Of a stretch of DNA of 56,332 nt, positions 748 through 43,974 are shown piece by piece. Source of the stretch: Escherichia phage HelliStehle_Bas95. Numbering within the stretch: the stretch's first letter is position 1; the number at the start of each line of letters is the position of its first letter. The notes below the pieces were generated by a model. The model had not been told where the DNA came from, ran no database searches, and saw only the letters and a list, made by a program, of their open reading frames with translations. Position numbers and translations under genes: made by a program. The stretch lies in the sequence record PQ850607.1; one strand, written 5' to 3'.

Positions 748-2375
748 TGTCTAAACGTGACGTGTGGGAGTTTGAAACAGACGAAGATGTATGGCTACTG
801 GCCGACTATCTGGAACAGAAAGCCAACAGCGTTAACTTTACATTTGAGGATGACTCAGAGGTAGACGCATTCTTCCTTAAATGTAAGAACGAGTTCCAGT
901 TCTTCGCTGAACGGTGCTGTACCATCCGCACGAAGGATAACACCCTGGAGCCGATACGCCTCAACAAGGCTCAGAAGTATATGTGTGCTATTGCGGCATG
1001 GCAGGCCCATCACACCGGTAAAGTACGCCTCATTATTGTTAAGGGACGTCAGCAAGGGATGAGTACGGTTGTTCAGGCTCGTGCATTCTGGAAGACCATC
1101 CACACTGAAGCGTACAACGCGTTGATCATGGCACACCAGGCTAAGTCCTCCGCTGCACTATTCGATATGACCAAGCGTTACTATCAATATTGCCCAGAGG
1201 ACTTGCAGCCTTCCAAAGGTCACGATAACGGCTTCGTACTTAAGTTTGCTGAACTTGACTCACAATATAGCGTGGCCACCGCTGGTAGCTCTGCCGCTGG
1301 TCGTGGTATGACAGCATCTTATTTTCATGCGTCGGAAGCAGCCTACTTTGCAGATGGTGCCGAGATCGCATCAGGTATCATGCAGGCCATCCCTAACGCT
1401 GACGGTACCGAAGTATTCCTTGAGTCGACCGCTAACGGTGCGTCAGGCTACTTCTATAACCAGTGGATGCAGGCATCCCCGCCACGTGACACGTCGTTGA
1501 AGGATGCTGATAGCTCCGGGTTCATTCGCGTATTCGTACCGTGGTTCTGGCAACCTGAGTACGCTGAACCAGCACCTGAGAGCATGGTGTACACTGACGA
1601 GGAGAGTAAATACGCACGTTTACATGGTCTTACCCGTGATCAGATGTTCTGGCGTCGCATGAAGGTGAAGTCGCTTGATGGTGATACCCGTCGATTTAAC
1701 CGCGATTACCCTGCTACGGCTGAAGAAGCATTCCAGTCTACTGGTGACAACTTGCTGATCAGCGGTGATATGATCGCCTCAGCTCTCTACTGGGCACGCT
1801 CCGGTAAGCTGGACCCGGTAGGTGCTACCGTTATGGGCGTAGACGTTGCTGCTATGGGTGACGACCAGACTGCAATAGTCATTCGCCGTGGCCGCGTGGT
1901 GCAACATGCCGAGACGTTAAGTAAGGCCACCAACAGGGAGATTGCCAACCGTATTCACGTGCTGCGTGAGATGTACGGCGTCAACCACACGTTCATCGAT
2001 GGTACTGGTGGCTTTGGTACAGGTGTACATGACGTAATGACCGAGCGCGGAATGTCCCACGGTGTGACGATGGTTCACTTTGCAGAGAAGGCTACCGAAG
2101 ACCACAAGTACAACAACAAGCGCTCGGAGATGTGGGCGAAAATGCGCGACTGGCTACGTAACGCCGCCGCACTCCCGCCCGGTCATGACTGGGGTCGCGA
2201 CTTATGCGGCGCTACCTATCGCTTTGAAGGTGACAGGTTGAGACTGGAACCGAAGGCTGACATCAAGAAGCGTATCGGTCGCTCGCCGGATATCGGGGAT
2301 GCACTGGCGTTAACCTTCGCGTTCCCTGTGGTCGAGGGTGGCTACAACGACTCTTACGAGCCGGAGTACGCTTAA
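747..2375 (+). CDS. terL: terminase large subunit
   Basis: 542 aa; P-loop-like VKGRQQGMST near N-terminus, acidic nuclease-type C-terminal half; sits upstream of portal/scaffold/capsid. Confidence 0.85.
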   Translation: MSKRDVWEFETDEDVWLLADYLEQKANSVNFTFEDDSEVDAFFLKCKNEFQFFAERCCTIRTKDNTLEPIRLNKAQKYMCAIAAWQAHHTGKVRLIIVKGRQQGMSTVVQARAFWKTIHTEAYNALIMAHQAKSSAALFDMTKRYYQYCPEDLQPSKGHDNGFVLKFAELDSQYSVATAGSSAAGRGMTASYFHASEAAYFADGAEIASGIMQAIPNADGTEVFLESTANGASGYFYNQWMQASPPRDTSLKDADSSGFIRVFVPWFWQPEYAEPAPESMVYTDEESKYARLHGLTRDQMFWRRMKVKSLDGDTRRFNRDYPATAEEAFQSTGDNLLISGDMIASALYWARSGKLDPVGATVMGVDVAAMGDDQTAIVIRRGRVVQHAETLSKATNREIANRIHVLREMYGVNHTFIDGTGGFGTGVHDVMTERGMSHGVTMVHFAEKATEDHKYNNKRSEMWAKMRDWLRNAAALPPGHDWGRDLCGATYRFEGDRLRLEPKADIKKRIGRSPDIGDALALTFAFPVVEGGYNDSYEPEYA

Positions 2376-3910
2376 CGCTCCATACGGGCTGTACCAGAGT
2401 TAAACAACTGGCCGCAGCCCGCTTTCTCCCACGCATCACGCTGAGAAGTGTAGTCGCCTATCACCTTGCCCATCTCCTTCAAAGTTGACTCAATGTTAGC
2501 GTGCTGCCACTTCTGGCGACTCATGAAGTACCCGCGATCGCTCCAGATACGGAACGACTCGACCACGCTCACAACCTTGAAACCTATAGCTTCGTAAGCG
2601 CTACCGGTGAAGTAGTCATAGTCGGTGAACGTGTAGGTACAGGGTGTTCCTTTCAGCAGACGCGACAGGCCACCTTGCACTGTACATGACGTTGCATATC
2701 TCACCAGTTCCCCATCGTTGGCTACACCAATTGCAGCAACCAGACCGAGCGTCGGGTGTACCAGACCTTTGCGGATAGCTGCCACTCGCCCACGCTGAAC
2801 GTGGTTGTCTTCCATGAATGACATGTAGTCACTCGATGACAACTCAACAACCTTACACTTACGTGCGCCAACCTTTGGCTCACTCGACTTACCCAGCGCG
2901 TGCGCAATGATGCGTTCAATCTGCGGGCGACGCTCTGACCAATCCGTGGCCGACACAGAGATTAGACGGTAACCCTGAGCGTTGCAGAGTTCACGTTTCA
3001 TCATATGATAACCCTTGCGGTCCTTATGCCAGTACTCACCGTTAAACTCGATGGCAACCTTGCACGACTCGATGACGATGTCGAGTTCATAAGGTGCGAT
3101 GATGGACTTGACGTTGTGGGCAACTGTTACACCAAGTGACTCGATATACTCACGCACTTCAATCTCACCACGTGAAACCTGCGTTGACTGTGCACAATGA
3201 GGGCAACCGCTCTTATTCACGATGACATTGTTGACCCGAGCAACCCATTGCTTCCCGCAGTCACCGCACTCGAATTCGCTGTCACCCTTACTTTCTTTGT
3301 AGGTGAGTAGGGTGAGGTTGGAAGGTAAACGACGCTCAATCTCTTCACGTGGTATTACTCGCGCTTTCCCATTGCGACGTTGCCCACAACCTTTACAATA
3401 ACGCTGCCCTGTCATCACGCCGTGCGCGGATGTTTCACGCTCACACCCGCAATCAGCACAGGTGAACACGCTCTTACCTTCCGCTGTCCCACAGTATCTG
3501 ACAAGCTTCACGCCTTCCGGTAAGCGTGCAATAACATCAGATTCGCTAAGCGCGTTACGTTGAGCGGCGCACACCTTGCATCCGCTCCCTTTGGTTAACA
3601 GGTCTTTACACGTAGTTTCCCACTCGTGACCCTCAGTGCAACGGAAGGTACTGCGTTCACGCCGTGATCCACCGTAGGTGACCAGGGTGATACCTTCGGG
3701 CATTGCTGGTGCAGGTTTAACGAAGCGTTGACCGCGGTTACGCTCGGAGCACGCAGGGCAACCTGATGATCTGAATTGTGCGTTGGTTGTACGTGACCAA
3801 TGGTGGCCGCACTCGACGCAACGGAATTCACACACCTTGTCAAGTTTCAGGAGCACCACACCTTTCTGTAAGCGCGGGATAACGTCGGCGTGAGTTAGTT
3901 TAGCTGGCAT
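2372..3910 (-). CDS. zinc-ribbon repeat protein with PD-(D/E)xK (DUF559/Vsr-like) nuclease motif; putative free-standing homing endonuclease
   Basis: 512 aa; four tandem CxxC...HxW...CxxC ribbons, then ELDIV ... AIEFNGEYWH motif; opposite strand inserted between terL and tail-fibre genes. Confidence 0.65.
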   Translation of the reverse strand: MPAKLTHADVIPRLQKGVVLLKLDKVCEFRCVECGHHWSRTTNAQFRSSGCPACSERNRGQRFVKPAPAMPEGITLVTYGGSRRERSTFRCTEGHEWETTCKDLLTKGSGCKVCAAQRNALSESDVIARLPEGVKLVRYCGTAEGKSVFTCADCGCERETSAHGVMTGQRYCKGCGQRRNGKARVIPREEIERRLPSNLTLLTYKESKGDSEFECGDCGKQWVARVNNVIVNKSGCPHCAQSTQVSRGEIEVREYIESLGVTVAHNVKSIIAPYELDIVIESCKVAIEFNGEYWHKDRKGYHMMKRELCNAQGYRLISVSATDWSERRPQIERIIAHALGKSSEPKVGARKCKVVELSSSDYMSFMEDNHVQRGRVAAIRKGLVHPTLGLVAAIGVANDGELVRYATSCTVQGGLSRLLKGTPCTYTFTDYDYFTGSAYEAIGFKVVSVVESFRIWSDRGYFMSRQKWQHANIESTLKEMGKVIGDYTSQRDAWEKAGCGQLFNSGTARMER

Positions 3911-3974
3911 TGTTTTAGTCTCTCGATGGTGATATCAGACGATTAGCTTACTCTGTTTGTTTAACGCGCGCAAT

Positions 3975-3987
3975 GACTGTTACAGTC
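3975..3987. promoter_or_regulatory. perfect 13-bp palindrome GACTGTTACAGTC upstream of tail-fibre gene (possible operator)
   Basis: read directly; lies in 133-bp intergenic region. Confidence 0.3.
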
Positions 3988-4043
3988 ACGGGTGGTTATA
4001 TGTTAGGCTACCCGGGCATCATTAACTTAAGGAGATCTTAACA

Positions 4044-4784
4044 ATGCCCGGAATTATCTTACATGATGAGGACGTTTATCGTCTGGCTCAGTCAGTAAAC
4101 GTCAAGCAAACAGAAGGTTACGCGCCAATGGGTGGCATCCTTGCCAACAACGGCATGTACTATCAGCCAATGGTTGAAGGTAGCGTTACCGCTCAGTACG
4201 TGGTGGTCCGCGAGCAGGAGTCACAAAACTTTATTGCTCGCTCGGAGACTACCACAGGATCGGCCCTCGGCGACATCCAGTACGTTGACGGCTTTTTCCT
4301 ACAAGCCTTCGGTGAGGAACCGGGCGGCGGGTCAGCTACCGTAGCGTGGGGCGATGTTACAGGTAAGCCGGCAACCTTCCCGCCAACCACGGGCACCACT
4401 GCGGGTACAGCACTCGCTGGTACACAAACGCTTGCAACCATTCCCGGTACCGTAACCATTGCTAAAGGTGGTACTGGGGCAACTACGGCTGACGCGGCGT
4501 GGACTGCACTCGGCGGCGGTGCTGTCGGCAAACTGGCCTCCCTGCCTGCGGCAACTACTGCTGCTGCTGGTGTGGTGCGTAAAGCTGTGGCCGTTACTGA
4601 CGCTACAAGCTCGGCGTCTACGGTACCCGCAGCACTGGCACCTGACGCTGACCTGGCAACTACTGTGACGGCGGTAAACGCTATCATTACCGCACTGACC
4701 GCAGTGCGCAGCAATTCCGGCAGCAGCGTTACGCAACTTAACGCACTGTTAGCGGCACTGAGGACAGCGCTGGTTGTATCGTAA
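4044..4784 (+). CDS. tail fibre-like protein
   Basis: 246 aa; WGDVTGKPATFPP motif typical of phage side tail fibre proteins; Gly/Thr/Ala-rich repeats. Confidence 0.65.
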   Translation: MPGIILHDEDVYRLAQSVNVKQTEGYAPMGGILANNGMYYQPMVEGSVTAQYVVVREQESQNFIARSETTTGSALGDIQYVDGFFLQAFGEEPGGGSATVAWGDVTGKPATFPPTTGTTAGTALAGTQTLATIPGTVTIAKGGTGATTADAAWTALGGGAVGKLASLPAATTAAAGVVRKAVAVTDATSSASTVPAALAPDADLATTVTAVNAIITALTAVRSNSGSSVTQLNALLAALRTALVVS

Positions 4785-29448: not shown

Positions 29449-30039
29449 TTATTTTATTAAAAGTTTGTGCGCTTGAAAAATGTACCAAAGGTAATTCACA
29501 TTATTCCAGTCGAGACGGGAGGCCAGGCTACAATCTGATACAAGTTGACCTGAGCACATGCTTGATTCTGTCACATCACCCCATCGACTTTTATTCTTCG
29601 TGTGGATGCGCTCGTCGTGCGGCACCCCGGCAGCGTCCAGCTTGCGCAACATGGCGATCACCGGGTCAGCCAGCAGTTCCGCAACCACGCTGTCGTAATA
29701 CTGGTCCGTCAGTTTGTTCTTACGCTTCCACGTTCCGGGCGTACCCTTCGGTGCCGTGCGCTTAACTAGTGTGCCGCCGGACTGCGCGACGTAATACCGG
29801 ATAGTGTTGGACAACTTCTCTTCGTGGCCGTCCGGGTAAACCAGATGCAGCGACGAGTCACGGTTAACCTTGCCACGTAACATGAAGTCGTAAGGGTCAC
29901 GGTGGTTGATAATGAACGACGTTAAGTCTTTACCATAAACCATATGCTCCACCACCGCCTTCTGCACCACCAGGGCGGAGTGATCTTTATGCCACTCACG
30001 ATCGAATGCGTAAGCGCCTTTCAATTTCAACTTGCTCAT
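29449..30039 (-). CDS. hypothetical protein downstream of DNA polymerase
   Basis: 196-aa ORF, different frame from polymerase ORF, in-frame TGA 7 codons upstream of its ATG. Confidence 0.5.
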   Translation of the reverse strand: MSKLKLKGAYAFDREWHKDHSALVVQKAVVEHMVYGKDLTSFIINHRDPYDFMLRGKVNRDSSLHLVYPDGHEEKLSNTIRYYVAQSGGTLVKRTAPKGTPGTWKRKNKLTDQYYDSVVAELLADPVIAMLRKLDAAGVPHDERIHTKNKSRWGDVTESSMCSGQLVSDCSLASRLDWNNVNYLWYIFQAHKLLIK

Positions 30040-30169
30040 ACAGCCACCCTCTCGACGTCATAACCTTTACACTCGTGTCTATCACCAGCATGTCTGTGGA
30101 AATACGACGGTACCGATGTATGTAGTTTCATTTTCACCAAACCTTAATTACTTGACGATAGCAATATAG

Positions 30170-31711
30170 TTATTCGTACTCCGCAATATAATTGTTGCAA
30201 TCTCGAATGAACATTCGACTGTAACACGCTTCTTCAAGCTCTAACTGGGTAACCTGTTCCCACCACTTACACACGTTGTCAACATGTTCCAGATATTCCA
30301 CCGGACAGTAGTACGTGATACCGTCGGTATTACACTGAATCATCCGAAGGCCCGGAACTTTCAGTAATTGCTCAACCAACATACACAGTGAAAGCTGGCC
30401 TGATACAGTAATCGTGAGTGTGTACTGAGAATCGTAAAACGGGCTGTACGCATTGTTACTGTTGCCGTACGTACCGTTGAGGGCCAGCTTGAAAGCTCCG
30501 CCCATCATCGTCTTTTTACCTACACGCAGACGTTCGTTATACAAAAACTCGTATATCTCACAAAACTTTTCTGACAGGTGCGCAGGGTAAATCTTATTTT
30601 TGATTGCAAGGTTTGGGTAATAACTCGCAACGTCACGATCCCGCACTTTCATCTTATCGTCACTAACTATTATTTCTCTGTGTAACGATGCGTGCAATCC
30701 CCCTGTACCGAAGTCGTAATTGAAATCGTTGATACGACAATGCAAGCTGGCCGCCACAAACTTCGCACCCTCAAGGTCTGTACCCTCTGGCAAGTTGCAT
30801 AAGCGACGTGGCTTTTTAGAACCCTTCACCCACACTTTGATACGCTTCGGGTCCATCCACTTAATCATCTCAGGTGTACATACAATGTCTGAAAACGCAC
30901 CTTTAGTTTCCTTGATTGTCTGAGCGGCCAGGTAGTTCATTACCATTTGAAACGCGGGATGTTCCAGTTTGATGTAAGGTATGATGCATTCTTTCAGCGG
31001 TATCTCTTTACGAATGGTCTGACGAGGTACACGTTTACCGCCTTTCTTTTCGTAACACGGTACACCAGATTTCTCCAGTTCCGTGATGAACACCTCGGCC
31101 CCGATCTTAGTGTCATTATGGTTCATGAAGTCTTTTCCGTATTTCTCGGTAAGCTCTTCACGAAATTGAATCATGTCGTACGACGCCTTGTAAAACTCTA
31201 ATGTCGCATCAACGTCATGGTCGTTGTACGCCCACAGAATTTTCTTTTGGTCATCGTCCAGATGGGTACCGACCGGGAACGGCAGGTCTTCCACACTGTC
31301 CATACGCATTGATATCTCCAGCGCCTTCAGACTGGTAGCCTTAGCCTTGTTATCGAAGTGGTGGATCTTCAGCAGGTCAATCTGCGGTATCAGTCGAGCG
31401 TCAGCCCACATCGGGTAAGCGTTGTCACCTTTAATACGCTGCATGGCCTTCTGATAAATACCTGCTACGGATGCCCACGGATTTTCGTACAACCACTGCA
31501 AAATTTCCCAGTCAAACCACAGGTTGTTGTAACCTACCATACGCTGGTCGTTGTTACGCAGGTAGTTCATGAAATAGAAAAGTTTCTCCCTATCATCTCG
31601 ACGGTCAGATATTTCATAACGGTATCTGTTACCAGACACAGCATGAACCGCACTGAACGTGAAGATGTTGGGGTACGTTTCCAAATCGTAAACATAATCG
31701 CGAGCATCCAT
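30170..31711 (-). CDS. family B DNA polymerase (compact, exonuclease + polymerase motifs)
   Basis: YDLETYPN (Exo I), YNNLWFDWE (Exo II), DVASYYPNL (motif A), KLALNGTYGNSNN (motif B), NTDG in place of DTDS (motif C); 513 aa. Confidence 0.75.
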   Translation of the reverse strand: MDARDYVYDLETYPNIFTFSAVHAVSGNRYRYEISDRRDDREKLFYFMNYLRNNDQRMVGYNNLWFDWEILQWLYENPWASVAGIYQKAMQRIKGDNAYPMWADARLIPQIDLLKIHHFDNKAKATSLKALEISMRMDSVEDLPFPVGTHLDDDQKKILWAYNDHDVDATLEFYKASYDMIQFREELTEKYGKDFMNHNDTKIGAEVFITELEKSGVPCYEKKGGKRVPRQTIRKEIPLKECIIPYIKLEHPAFQMVMNYLAAQTIKETKGAFSDIVCTPEMIKWMDPKRIKVWVKGSKKPRRLCNLPEGTDLEGAKFVAASLHCRINDFNYDFGTGGLHASLHREIIVSDDKMKVRDRDVASYYPNLAIKNKIYPAHLSEKFCEIYEFLYNERLRVGKKTMMGGAFKLALNGTYGNSNNAYSPFYDSQYTLTITVSGQLSLCMLVEQLLKVPGLRMIQCNTDGITYYCPVEYLEHVDNVCKWWEQVTQLELEEACYSRMFIRDCNNYIAEYE

Positions 31712-31720
31712 TTTAAGTCC

Positions 31721-32401
31721 TTACATTTTCGGCAGTGGTGGTAAACCTGGTGCGTCCGGCAGCTTCGGTGGTAATGACGGTGCGCCCGGTAGCGGTGGTA
31801 ATGATGGTGTCGCCAGTGACGGTGCGGCAGTCTTCAGGATCTTCACGTTCGGACTGTCAACGTCATGCCCCAGCAGCTTCTTAGCTTTGTAGAAGAGTTC
31901 TTCCAGCATCGCCAGACCTTTGTCCGGGCTATCGGTCATCGTCGGGATACTGCGTTCTTGCTCAGCGACAAAACGGTTGGCCGCGTTAAGTGTCGAGCCG
32001 TCAAAGTTGTGACCCTTCAGCATCAGTTGCTTCTTGTCATTCGTCACCGCGTACAGATAAGCGTAGTGGCTGACGTGTGACTCGTAGTGATTCTGCCAGA
32101 TGGTAGCGTTGCACTGGTGCTGAGTCTGGCGACCGACGATGCGGGAGGCCATCATATTGGCGCCAATCAATTCGGCCCCGGAGTTTACCAGCGTCTGCAC
32201 GTTGGAGTAAATGAACTTTTTGAAAACGTCATCACCGTAGTGGTCTGTAACTTTCTCCCAGTCCTGCAACACGTAATCGTAGCGGTGTTTCTCTTCACCG
32301 AAGATTGAGATGGATGCAGCGATAACGGGAGAACCTAATACGGCGTTGGCGGTGATGAGGTGTATTGCAGCGATTCGTTGTGCCATGATTTCGGATTCCA
32401 T
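31721..32401 (-). CDS. hypothetical protein with Pro-rich C-terminal tail
   Basis: 226-aa ORF directly upstream of polymerase. Confidence 0.5.
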   Translation of the reverse strand: MESEIMAQRIAAIHLITANAVLGSPVIAASISIFGEEKHRYDYVLQDWEKVTDHYGDDVFKKFIYSNVQTLVNSGAELIGANMMASRIVGRQTQHQCNATIWQNHYESHVSHYAYLYAVTNDKKQLMLKGHNFDGSTLNAANRFVAEQERSIPTMTDSPDKGLAMLEELFYKAKKLLGHDVDSPNVKILKTAAPSLATPSLPPLPGAPSLPPKLPDAPGLPPLPKM

Positions 32402-32781: not shown

Positions 32782-33819
32782 TTACGCGTTGTAAGGGTGA
32801 CCGCCTGGTGCAGCAGGTGCTGCAGGTGCCGCAGGTGCTGCCGGAGGTGTCATCGGTGCTGCGGCTGCCGCAGGTTGCATCTTACCGTTAGCGACCAGGG
32901 CTTCTTCTGTCCAGCCGCTTGCGATGTACTGATCGTAAGTGTAATCAGTAGCAATCATGCGGCTCTGCGGCGTCGGTGCTACAGGCGCAGCAGGAGGTAC
33001 AGCAGGAGCGGCGGCAGGTGCAGGAGCAGCAGGAGGCATACCAGCACCCGGAGTAACCGGAGCAGCGGGAGTTGCCGGAGGCATACCAGCGCCCGGTAAA
33101 CCAGGCATCCCGCCAGCAGCCGGAGGCATACCAGGTTGTGCACTCATCGCCGGAGTAGTACCGCCCACAGGCATAGTGCTCATGCCAGTCAGTGATGCAG
33201 CAGGTTCCTGATTCAGAATGCTGGTGTAGTCAGGACCGCTCACGATCGGCGTACCGTAACCCACACGCTGAATCATGTGGAAGTTAATGTAAATGCCGGA
33301 CTGCGGTGGCGCTGAGTCGTTGCACTTGATAGAGCACAGTACGCGAACATAGTGGCCGCACGGGAAAGTGTGAGCGCCTTTAAGCTGTTGCACTTTCTTA
33401 CCGTCAGGACCAACGGTGTCGTTGTACGGAGATGGTACCGCAGACTGATCAACGTCGAACACCTGTGGCTGGAAGCCGTTCTTGAATTTGATAACCCAGC
33501 AACCTTTCCAGCCAGGCTTGTTCACGTTTTGCGGAGCGTCGCCATCTTCCATCTTCCAGTGAAAACCTACCCACTGAGTCGCCTGATATGACGCAGCGTA
33601 TTTATGCTTAGCAGCTTCCTGTTGCATCAGCGCATACAGTTCATCAAAGCGCGTGGCCGCTGGCTGGTCTTTCGGGAAGGCCACTGCGCAGAAATATTCC
33701 TCACGACCGTCCTTCAGCGCAACGCCCTGGAAGCCAGTGGTGTTAGCACGGAACGGGTCGCCGGATACCAGGATGCCAGTACCAGTCAGGAATTGATCAG
33801 CAGAGTTTTGAATAGCCAT
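32782..33819 (-). CDS. putative ssDNA-binding protein (DUF2815-like) with Pro/Ala/Gly/Met-rich linker
   Basis: 345 aa; low-complexity PAAPGMP linker and aromatic/acidic C-terminus; adjacent to Cas4-like nuclease and polymerase. Confidence 0.5.
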   Translation of the reverse strand: MAIQNSADQFLTGTGILVSGDPFRANTTGFQGVALKDGREEYFCAVAFPKDQPAATRFDELYALMQQEAAKHKYAASYQATQWVGFHWKMEDGDAPQNVNKPGWKGCWVIKFKNGFQPQVFDVDQSAVPSPYNDTVGPDGKKVQQLKGAHTFPCGHYVRVLCSIKCNDSAPPQSGIYINFHMIQRVGYGTPIVSGPDYTSILNQEPAASLTGMSTMPVGGTTPAMSAQPGMPPAAGGMPGLPGAGMPPATPAAPVTPGAGMPPAAPAPAAAPAVPPAAPVAPTPQSRMIATDYTYDQYIASGWTEEALVANGKMQPAAAAAPMTPPAAPAAPAAPAAPGGHPYNA

Positions 33820-43071: not shown

Positions 43072-43372
43072 GGCGGCTGGCCTCCTGTGCATCAACGATT
43101 GCTTCGTTTGTGGCGACAATGAGATCCACCACATGTTTTGCGAGTACGGTAAGATTCCCGTGTCGCGCTTGATTCACCACGTTGATCGCGGTGTTCTCAT
43201 CCGTCATCATTTCCACGCCGTCAATCAGGTCGACGATGAATTTGTGGCGGTCATACTCCCGGTTAAAGCTGGCGATGTCCGGGTGGTTATCAAGATGAAA
43301 GCAACACCTGTATCCTTTAGGTAAATTGGTAACGCGATCACCTACTCGCGGCCCGTCGATTAAAAGAATCAT
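43061..43372 (-). CDS. hypothetical protein
   Basis: start at MILLIDGP...; ATGA overlap with HNH gene. Confidence 0.45.
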   Translation of the reverse strand: MILLIDGPRVGDRVTNLPKGYRCCFHLDNHPDIASFNREYDRHKFIVDLIDGVEMMTDENTAINVVNQARHGNLTVLAKHVVDLIVATNEAIVDAQEASRHVR

Positions 43373-43974
43373 GCTTTGTGTTCTCCGTGGTTGGCAAATT
43401 CTCCATGTGCCAGTCGTTGAGCCTGTAACCATTCCACGGCGAGGCGTTTACCTTCTTCAGTTAAAGGGAAGTATTTAACATTCTTGCATACTCCCGCACG
43501 ATAACACTTTCCTTTATTTACAGACAAACCTTTGATACCCGTCGAACTATCAAACCGCGTTTGTCTATTCCAACTGTTCTCGTCCGGTTCAGCTTCCCGT
43601 AAATTAGAGATTCGATTATCATCACGAATCCCGTTAAGATGGTCTAACCATCCGTTAGGTGGTTCACCGTAATACATTTCCCATATAATACGGTGAACCT
43701 TCCAACACTTGCCGTCAAACGTGCATTGTCTATAACCTTTCGGATCAAGCGAACCAACCTCATCACCAGCTTTAACGCGACGAGCCGTTGGTCTTTTCCA
43801 GAACAGCTTCCCGGTAACAGGGTCGTAACGAAAATGATGCTCAAATAAATGTAGCGACAATTTGAGCCTCCTTGCGATGTGATCTGTGAATGGTAACGAC
43901 TCCAGCCGTTTCAAGTTTCTTCGCCGCCTTGCGCACATGCTCTTTGTCATAGCCGGTATAGGAGGCCAGTTCAT
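43369..43974 (-). CDS. HNH homing endonuclease with AP2-like DNA-binding domain
   Basis: GKLFWK...GYRQC..DGK.WKVHRIIWEMYYGEPP.GW.DHLNG.RDDNR.SNL; start uncertain (overlaps upstream ORF). Confidence 0.7.
   Translation of the reverse strand: MNWPPIPAMTKSMCARRRRNLKRLESLPFTDHIARRLKLSLHLFEHHFRYDPVTGKLFWKRPTARRVKAGDEVGSLDPKGYRQCTFDGKCWKVHRIIWEMYYGEPPNGWLDHLNGIRDDNRISNLREAEPDENSWNRQTRFDSSTGIKGLSVNKGKCYRAGVCKNVKYFPLTEEGKRLAVEWLQAQRLAHGEFANHGEHKA

Follow-up and report, generated by a model that had tools for sequence, protein, structure and literature searches.

The genome of Escherichia phage HelliStehle_Bas95 (sequence record PQ850607.1; 56,332 nucleotides (nt), here termed the window) encodes a family B DNA polymerase (PolB) in two adjacent open reading frames (ORFs) on its minus strand, designated pol-N and pol-C and separated by a short gap. 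The frame of ORF2 is +1 relative to that of ORF1, and an in-frame TGA stands 7 codons 5' of the ORF2 ATG. A first description made from the letters alone (the sequence-only reading) had reported ORFs of 513 and 196 amino acids (aa), this in-frame stop, the exonuclease motifs, motifs A and B and the hexapeptide QCNTDG, all of which are present on the minus strand as described. One of its measurements required a small adjustment: the ORFs are indeed separated and in different frames, but the gap is 130 nt rather than 127 bp. ORF1 stops 49 residues after motif C. Between the ORFs no convincing internal sigma-70 promoter or terminator was found, the sole strong promoter-like site being located downstream of ORF2, and the gap sequence, which occurs once within the window, is not a repeat. 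The polymerase features are as follows:

30170..31711, minus strand: pol-N (ORF1), 513 aa, N-terminal part of a family B DNA polymerase, ending in E513 and TAA
29449..30039, minus strand: pol-C (ORF2), 196 aa, C-terminal part, with the last palm beta-strand and the thumb-position domain
30040..30169, minus strand: untranslated gap between pol-N and pol-C, 130 nt
pol-N residues 8-15: Exo I, YDLETYPN (D9/E11)
pol-N residues 62-67: Exo II, NNLWFD (N62, F66-D67)
pol-N residues 162-166: Exo III, YNDHD (Y162, D166)
pol-N residues 360-367: motif A, DVASYYPN
pol-N residues 408-416: motif B, KLALNGTYG
pol-N residues 459-464 (nt 30320-30337, minus strand): motif C, QCNTDG
pol-N residues 506-512 (nt 30176-30196, minus strand): NNYIAEY strand (NxY, the KxY equivalent)
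pol-C residues 7-10: KGAY strand, the last palm beta-strand

The two ORFs are colinear halves of one protein, because they match consecutive parts of PHROG 1252 ('DNA polymerase', 663 positions): ORF1 corresponds to profile positions 52-507 (E 1.8e-152) and ORF2 to positions 512-648 (E 3.6e-25). ORF2 is also matched end to end by a separate PHROG composed of stand-alone proteins of about 192 aa. Its nearest relatives among sequenced phages are PTXU04 and Pondi, two Escherichia phages of the genus Xuquatrovirus (about 79% nucleotide identity), in which the polymerase is a single ORF of 721 or 735 aa, within a range of 704-735 aa for the nearest phages, and the gene order is the same as in the window. 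Alignment with the closest homologues, which the sequence-only reading had proposed as a check, gives a clear answer: the PTXU04 and Pondi counterparts are fused, ORF1 and ORF2 align with them end to end and in colinear order, and pol-N is 77% identical in amino acid sequence to their N-terminal part. In the fused genes the YIAEY and KGAY codons are joined by a linker of 48 nt, SEGYYNPEKPDSRYKR, whereas the corresponding interval of the window spans 154 nt and reads YIAEYE and a stop codon, then 130 nt, then MSKLKL followed directly by KGAY. The window thus has about 106 nt more than the fused genes, a net insertion that contributes a stop codon, a Shine-Dalgarno sequence and an ATG; the split is not a frameshift. 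Both halves are well conserved. Of the columns in the fused-family alignment, they together retain all 85 that are invariant and 108 of the 116 that are near-invariant, and the pairwise ratio of nonsynonymous to synonymous substitution rates (dN/dS), computed for both halves against five relatives, is 0.017-0.30.

Assignment to family B draws on motifs and fold. ORF1 carries Exo I (DxE), Exo II (Nx2-3[FY]D) and Exo III (Yx3D), whose residues are invariant in 42 relatives, as well as motif A (DxxSLYPS) and motif B (KxxxNSxYG), and the exonuclease, palm, fingers and thumb of the PolB fold are all represented. A profile search of PDB sequences returned weak matches (E 1e-3 to 0.7), all but one of them PolB; KLALNGxYG aligned with motif B, NTDG with DTDS, and the NNYIAEY..G..KRKGAY..REWHKD stretch was aligned as well. 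Motif B aligns with that of Sulfolobus PolB1, and motifs A and B with those of the 774-aa PolB chain 8s84. Curated models are silent: neither PF00136 nor PF03104 nor any NCBIfam model identifies the protein, and only PHROGs match. In Pfam, ORF1 and ORF2 gave no polymerase-family match and one sub-threshold match to ACT_5 (E 0.17), and NCBIfam had no match for ORF1, ORF2 or the fused PTXU04 protein. PF10108 (DNA_pol_B_exo2) is recorded for some relatives.

Motif C departs from the YxDTDS consensus with its two aspartates, reading QCNTDG, with the first aspartate replaced by asparagine and the second kept. The second aspartate of motif C is a catalytic metal ligand. N-T-D-G is invariant in the alignment of 42 fused relatives and is thus a trait of the clade unrelated to the split, contrary to the suggestion that it goes together with a truncated enzyme. 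Likewise, KxY reads NxY throughout the clade, N506 and Y508 being invariant. We know of no characterisation of the NTDG and NxY signature motifs, and none turned up in the searches, which were not aimed at this question. The clade is large (530 clusters at 50% identity and 368 phage records in the searches carried out here, among them Rheinheimera, Vibrio, Klebsiella and Flavobacterium phages), and in these searches no Pfam or NCBIfam model covered it.

On the structural model of a fused homologue, the split site is the loop of residues 513-525, between strands 507-512 and 526-529. The break is thus placed in the hairpin loop that follows the NxY strand, at the border of palm and thumb, and given this position ORF2 is predicted to supply the last palm strand and everything in the position of the thumb. 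When pol-C is modelled alone, its N-terminal 20 residues are disordered, with a predicted local distance difference test (pLDDT) score of 46-58, whereas these residues have good order when modelled as part of the fused protein (about 88-90). This difference fits a pol-C strand that needs pol-N in order to fold, as in strand complementation.

The gap that divides the two cistrons contains the following features:

30143..30169, minus strand: leader CTATATTGCTATCGTCAAGTAATTAAG, 27 nt directly after the pol-N stop, with the deletion junction at its 3' end
30036..30142, minus strand: GIY-YIG relic, the last ~34 codons, LVKMKLHTSVPSYFHRHAGDRHECKGYDVERVAV and a stop, read in the third frame
30047..30053, minus strand: Shine-Dalgarno-like GAGAGGG, 7 nt 5' of the pol-C ATG, inside the V-E-R-V codons of the relic

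The key to these elements is the closest split relative, a locus designated L006, in which pol-N is 91% identical in amino acid sequence, the neighbouring genes are the same and the split site holds a 217-aa GIY-YIG gene matching PF01541 and TIGR01453 ('group I intron endonuclease'). By blastn, the 27-nt leader of the window is identical at 27 of 27 positions to the start of the 58-nt leader that precedes this gene. The remaining 103 nt of the gap encode LVKMKLHTSVPSYFHRHAGDRHECKGYDVERVAV and a stop codon, which aligns with the C-termini of the GIY-YIG proteins of L006, L007, L008 and L012 (for example, one ending in LKSMTLHTSVISCFNRHSGDKHLCKGYSVERVAL and a stop) and groups with the GIY-YIG set by blastp. 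Searches of the window by tblastn with the proteins of L006, L007 and L008 matched only positions 30039-30233 (E 8e-8 to 9e-12), and no other GIY-YIG copy was found there. About 576 nt of the L006 cassette are absent: its ribosome-binding site and start codon, together with the part that encodes the catalytic domain and most of the DNA-binding region. A functional GIY-YIG gene has an N-terminal catalytic domain and its own start codon; here only the C-terminal 34 codons are left, and the element is therefore a relic and not a gene. The relic TGA overlaps the pol-C ATG (ATGA), as it does in the intact cassettes of L006, L008 and L012, and the GAGAGGG element is the same in L006 and reads GAGCGAG at the equivalent position in L008 and L012; by its placement it would be the ribosome-binding site of pol-C. 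Because the relic DNA is just 64-69% identical to the known alleles, the ancestral homing endonuclease gene (HEG) was a distinct variant. By these sequence comparisons, the window gap is demonstrably a deletion relic of a GIY-YIG cassette.

The tail of pol-N, RMFIRDCNNYIAEYE and its stop codon, and the head of pol-C, MSKLKLKGAYAF, are identical in three alleles whose intervening sequences differ:

L006, 4292-5001: intact GIY-YIG gene
L011, 361-1206: intact T5orf172 gene
Window, 30040-30169: GIY-YIG relic

L011, whose pol-C is 93% identical to that of the window, carries a T5orf172 gene at the split site, and the sharing of tails and heads by alleles with different HEGs shows that HEGs were swapped within an already split allele. 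As a separate observation, nucleotide identity around the split is mosaic: the 5' part of pol-C (window 29820-29910) is 96-97% identical to PTXU04 and Pondi, and the end of pol-N (window 30180-30450) is 60-72% identical to these two phages and 80-96% identical to L006 and L011. The pattern looks like a recombination boundary at the HEG site and possibly reflects a co-conversion tract.

A survey of relatives placed this arrangement in a wider context. Among 101 classifiable loci from IMG/VR and metagenomes, 84 were fused and 17 split; together with 12 from phage records and other assemblies, the latter make up a set of 29 split relatives. The break falls in the same loop in all 23 with aligned junctions, and in the 16 resolved at the level of residues pol-N ends 2-5 residues past NNYIxxY and pol-C begins 3-6 residues before KGAY. 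An intervening ORF is present in 29 of 29, with an insert length of 557-879 nt in the 22 loci measured. At the 21 loci where they were compared, the intervening ORFs belong to four unrelated families, namely GIY-YIG, T5orf172/MUG113 with treble-clef zinc fingers, HNH_3 and one without a Pfam match; four additional split loci yielded HNH_3 in two and an ORF without a Pfam match in the other two. The short gap is found in the window only, among the split loci examined, and a search for the exact scar junction in IMG/VR and JGI metagenomes returned 0 matches. Close homologues (at least 68% identity) are mostly fused (about 60 of 65). In a large protein collection, ORF2 homologues are mostly stand-alone proteins of about 190 aa, and a count by eye of 150 cluster representatives of ORF2 homologues gave about 65 that are fused and about 24 that start exactly at the split point.

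Split alleles are also found in cultured phages. Jedunavirus KpV79 and FZ14, Yokohamavirus PVN06 and Yersinia phage fEV-1 carry an N part, an endonuclease-like ORF and a C part, annotated in GenBank as DNA polymerase, endonuclease and DNA polymerase. Their polymerases belong to the same family (41-47% amino acid identity) and share with the window the split site and the sizes of pol-N and pol-C; unlike the window, in which a 107-nt stub remains, they keep a complete HEG (T5orf172, HNH_3 or unclassified). That cultured lytic phages carry the split shows that a two-piece enzyme is compatible with replication. The locus thus has the hallmarks of a gene in pieces: a contiguous orthologue in close relatives with which the halves are colinear, and at the split a free-standing HEG, reduced to a relic in the window, with neither intron nor intein. 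A further split copy was noted in L125 (JGI 3300043492, contig Ga0480323_0000001, 3.27 Mb), where positions 1443-4073 encode 488 aa, a 176-aa ORF and 190 aa next to response regulator and CHAP/DPBB genes; it possibly reflects a prophage or else a chimeric bin. No further recurrent split site is claimed, although phrog_18505 and several matches of about 300 aa hinted at one; the sole case checked (L131) is fragmented by frameshifts. This locus (ENA ERZ28548094, positions 2645-4412) stems from a polished long-read assembly, and at the palm/thumb site its polymerase is fused; its fragments cover ORF1 residues 135-376 and 432-513, the latter fused to pol-C; the breaks are probably indel errors. 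Some of the 'homologues' of about 300 aa in protein databases are probably indel artefacts of the same kind rather than evidence for a second split site.

The comparisons show directly that the halves are colinear, where the split lies, that the gap is homologous to a HEG cassette, that both halves are conserved and that HEGs recur at the site. These observations are best explained, with a good deal of confidence, as a PolB gene in pieces in which a GIY-YIG HEG entered the palm/thumb loop, was later largely deleted and left behind a two-subunit polymerase. According to this scheme, a free-standing GIY-YIG cassette would once have been located in the loop-coding sequence between the NxY and KGAY strands, its presence dividing the gene into pol-N (exonuclease, palm and fingers) and pol-C (the last palm strand and thumb). 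A later deletion of about 576 nt would have taken the ribosome-binding site, start codon and catalytic domain of the HEG, leaving the 27-nt leader and the last 34 codons, which would give pol-C its Shine-Dalgarno sequence and ATGA overlap. Both halves would then be translated from one mRNA, pol-C from its own ribosome-binding site, perhaps with coupling to the relic ORF of 34 codons, and the HEG 3' end may have been kept because its deletion would remove the pol-C translation start. From sequence conservation, structural modelling and analogy with other split enzymes, we infer that the two subunits would assemble non-covalently, the N-terminal strand of pol-C pairing with the C-terminal strand of pol-N, to form an active polymerase. 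It is enticing to go one step further and view the window as an end stage of HEG occupancy, in which the HEG has been lost, the split has become fixed as a stable two-subunit polymerase and the last HEG codons serve as a ribosome-binding and coupling element for the thumb subunit; this is a reading toward which the balance tips slightly.

The order of events could have been different, the gene having been split earlier by another event and its intercistronic space colonised by HEGs later, in which case the window gap would still be a HEG relic. L006 (GIY-YIG), L011 (T5orf172) and the window do share a pol-N tail and a pol-C head between which HEGs were exchanged, and the same ambiguity was raised for gene 43 of phage 25 versus phage 44RR (PMC2988022). 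A prior split is nonetheless unlikely, given that most close relatives are fused and that every other split allele contains a HEG-type ORF, none having been seen without a HEG or its remnants. A different and quite improbable proposition is that the polymerase is a decaying pseudogene, inactivated by the insertion and deletion, in a phage that is defective or uses another polymerase. The HEG is visibly decayed, so the locus has undergone deletions; the identical scar was not found elsewhere in IMG/VR or JGI metagenomes; and 8 of the 116 near-invariant positions differ, two of them at the junction. Set against this, both ORFs are intact, the invariant residues, including every catalytic motif, are retained in full, dN/dS is 0.017-0.30, the pol-C Shine-Dalgarno sequence and ATG are preserved, and the two-piece layout recurs in cultured lytic phages. 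Of the options left by the sequence-only reading, that of a split gene with the thumb supplied in trans is right, the gene in two pieces being a real feature with its break at the palm/thumb border; decay is unlikely for the reasons just given, and an unusually minimal polymerase is not supported, every homologue of 478-518 aa examined having a downstream partner. Insertion and deletion of a HEG as the cause had not been named there.

It might also be supposed that a single polypeptide is still made, whether the RNA is spliced, a split intein joins the halves, or ribosomes bypass the 130 nt or shift frame across them. Group I introns and inteins do occur in other phage DNA polymerase genes, and T4 gene 60 is read with a bypass of 50 nt next to a HEG insertion. 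The insertion in gene 60 is that of mobA (PMC2988022). For the window this is very improbable. Rfam gave no match in the region at E<=1 and none in 11 HEG-bearing loci, the gap RNA is no more stably folded than shuffled versions of it (z 0.15), and 130-154 nt is below the size of the smallest group I introns known to us (about 200 nt), all of which argues against an intron. Intein halves at the junction, as in the fractured genes with split inteins (Dassa et al. 2009, PMC2677866), are absent: there are no extra residues relative to the fused proteins, pol-N ending 1 residue past YIAEY and pol-C starting 6 residues before KGAY, within the loop of the fused protein. Readthrough or bypassing would meet a second stop in the ORF1 frame 11 codons after the TAA. 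A gene 60-type bypass would use matched take-off and landing codons, a stop after the former and a 5' stem-loop; here the stop follows GAA, but no in-frame GAA landing codon precedes KGAY, and the gap shows no significant structure. In the relatives, moreover, each of the three ORFs overlaps the next from stop to start, a layout typical of cistrons translated independently or with coupling. Least credible is a sequencing or assembly artefact, whether a frameshift or a chimeric join. The polished long-read assembly of L131 does contain a frameshift-fragmented polymerase, but the insertion of about 106 nt matches a GIY-YIG leader and 3' end, in order and in frame, from independent assemblies, and L006 and L011 have exactly the same pol-N tail and pol-C head. 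Since what was inserted on balance in the gap is homologous to a HEG cassette, a frameshift arising in assembly is excluded.

Two-piece family B polymerases have a counterpart in Archaea, the PolB of Methanothermobacter thermautotrophicus reportedly consisting of a large N-terminal and a small C-terminal polypeptide that are active as a complex. The likeness lies in the division into a large N and a small C polypeptide; unlike those of the window, the archaeal genes are said to be unlinked and, to our knowledge, carry no HEG relic. The splitting of essential phage genes by free-standing HEGs is likewise established, as in nrdA (Aeh1), gene 60 (T4) and gene 43 (Aeromonas phages 25 and 44RR) (PMC2988022), and according to the summary given there gp43A and gp43B of Aeromonas phage 25 co-purify and have activity, and NrdA of Aeh1 is functional in its split form. 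A close parallel is gene 43 (43A/43B) of phages 25 and 44RR (Petrov, Ratnayaka and Karam 2010, via PMC2988022), a phage PolB in two cistrons; as summarised there, the split is occupied by a GIY-YIG (seg-type) HEG in one relative and in another by no more than a short untranslated stretch between the cistrons. On the same summary, the window polymerase differs in belonging to another clade (no Pfam or NCBIfam match; NTDG) and to a Xuquatrovirus-like phage, and in its split position at the palm/thumb border. It further differs in that the order of the 44RR spacer relative to HEG invasion is left open in that account, whereas the window spacer is demonstrably a HEG relic and follows occupancy. 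NrdA of Aeromonas phage Aeh1, split by mobE (Friedrich et al. 2007, via PMC2988022), also has a free-standing HEG inside an essential gene with no intron or intein, and its polypeptides are described there as reassembling into a functional enzyme, as is proposed for the window; unlike the window, it concerns another enzyme and an HNH HEG that is still intact. HEG islands (Barth et al. 2023, PMC10448857) similarly feature different HEG classes at one location beside or within the DNA polymerase genes of related phages and a mosaic of sequence identity around the HEG, but that study covers neighbourhoods and predicted splicing junctions, not a relic-bearing, HEG-free split polymerase.

Literature searches on Jedunavirus, homing endonucleases and DNA polymerase, and on split polymerases and genes in pieces, turned up no paper on the split in this family, only GenBank annotations. 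HEG-driven gene splitting in phages is already known, and the window is an unusually clear case of the stage that follows HEG loss. What is new is limited to an uncurated PolB clade, a palm/thumb split used by at least four HEG-type ORF families and an allele whose HEG is reduced to a stub that still provides the pol-C translation start. Related phages carry side by side fused alleles of one polymerase, alleles occupied by HEGs of at least four ORF families, and HEG-relic alleles, and the window offers a clean example, at the level of sequence, of the way in which the subunit structure of an enzyme essential for replication can be altered permanently by a selfish endonuclease. If the end-stage reading is true, short 'intercistronic untranslated sequences' in other split phage polymerases (e.g. 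44RR gene 43) may be HEG relics as well, and HEG invasion followed by loss could be a general route from single-chain to multi-subunit polymerases. More practically, the palm/thumb border is a natural, tolerated PolB split point that could guide the engineering of split polymerases, a large phage PolB clade outside the Pfam and NCBIfam models is brought to notice, and both ORFs are better named DNA polymerase subunits than 'DNA polymerase' and 'hypothetical protein'.

Other ORFs of the window deserve mention. On the minus strand at 43369-43974 is a 201-aa ORF with an HNH_3 domain (E 9e-14) that is 30-35% identical to the polymerase-splitting HNH_3 endonucleases of L005, L018, L019, L026 and L037 and is likely another free-standing homing endonuclease in this genome. 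A 512-aa ORF (2372-3910, minus strand) may be a HEG belonging to another class of nuclease: it resembles the T5orf172-type HEGs of the polymerase site in having at least 3 treble-clef zinc-finger repeats (DUF4379) and also has a Vsr/MTES_1575-like nuclease region below the Pfam cut-off. A 226-aa ORF (31721-32401, minus strand) immediately upstream of the polymerase ends in PSLPP/PGLPP repeats, and the ORF at 32782-33819 on the minus strand, at the position of the PTXU04 Gp2.5-like single-stranded DNA-binding protein, contains a long low-complexity, Pro/Ala-rich stretch of about 100 residues of PAAP/GMPP-type repeats.

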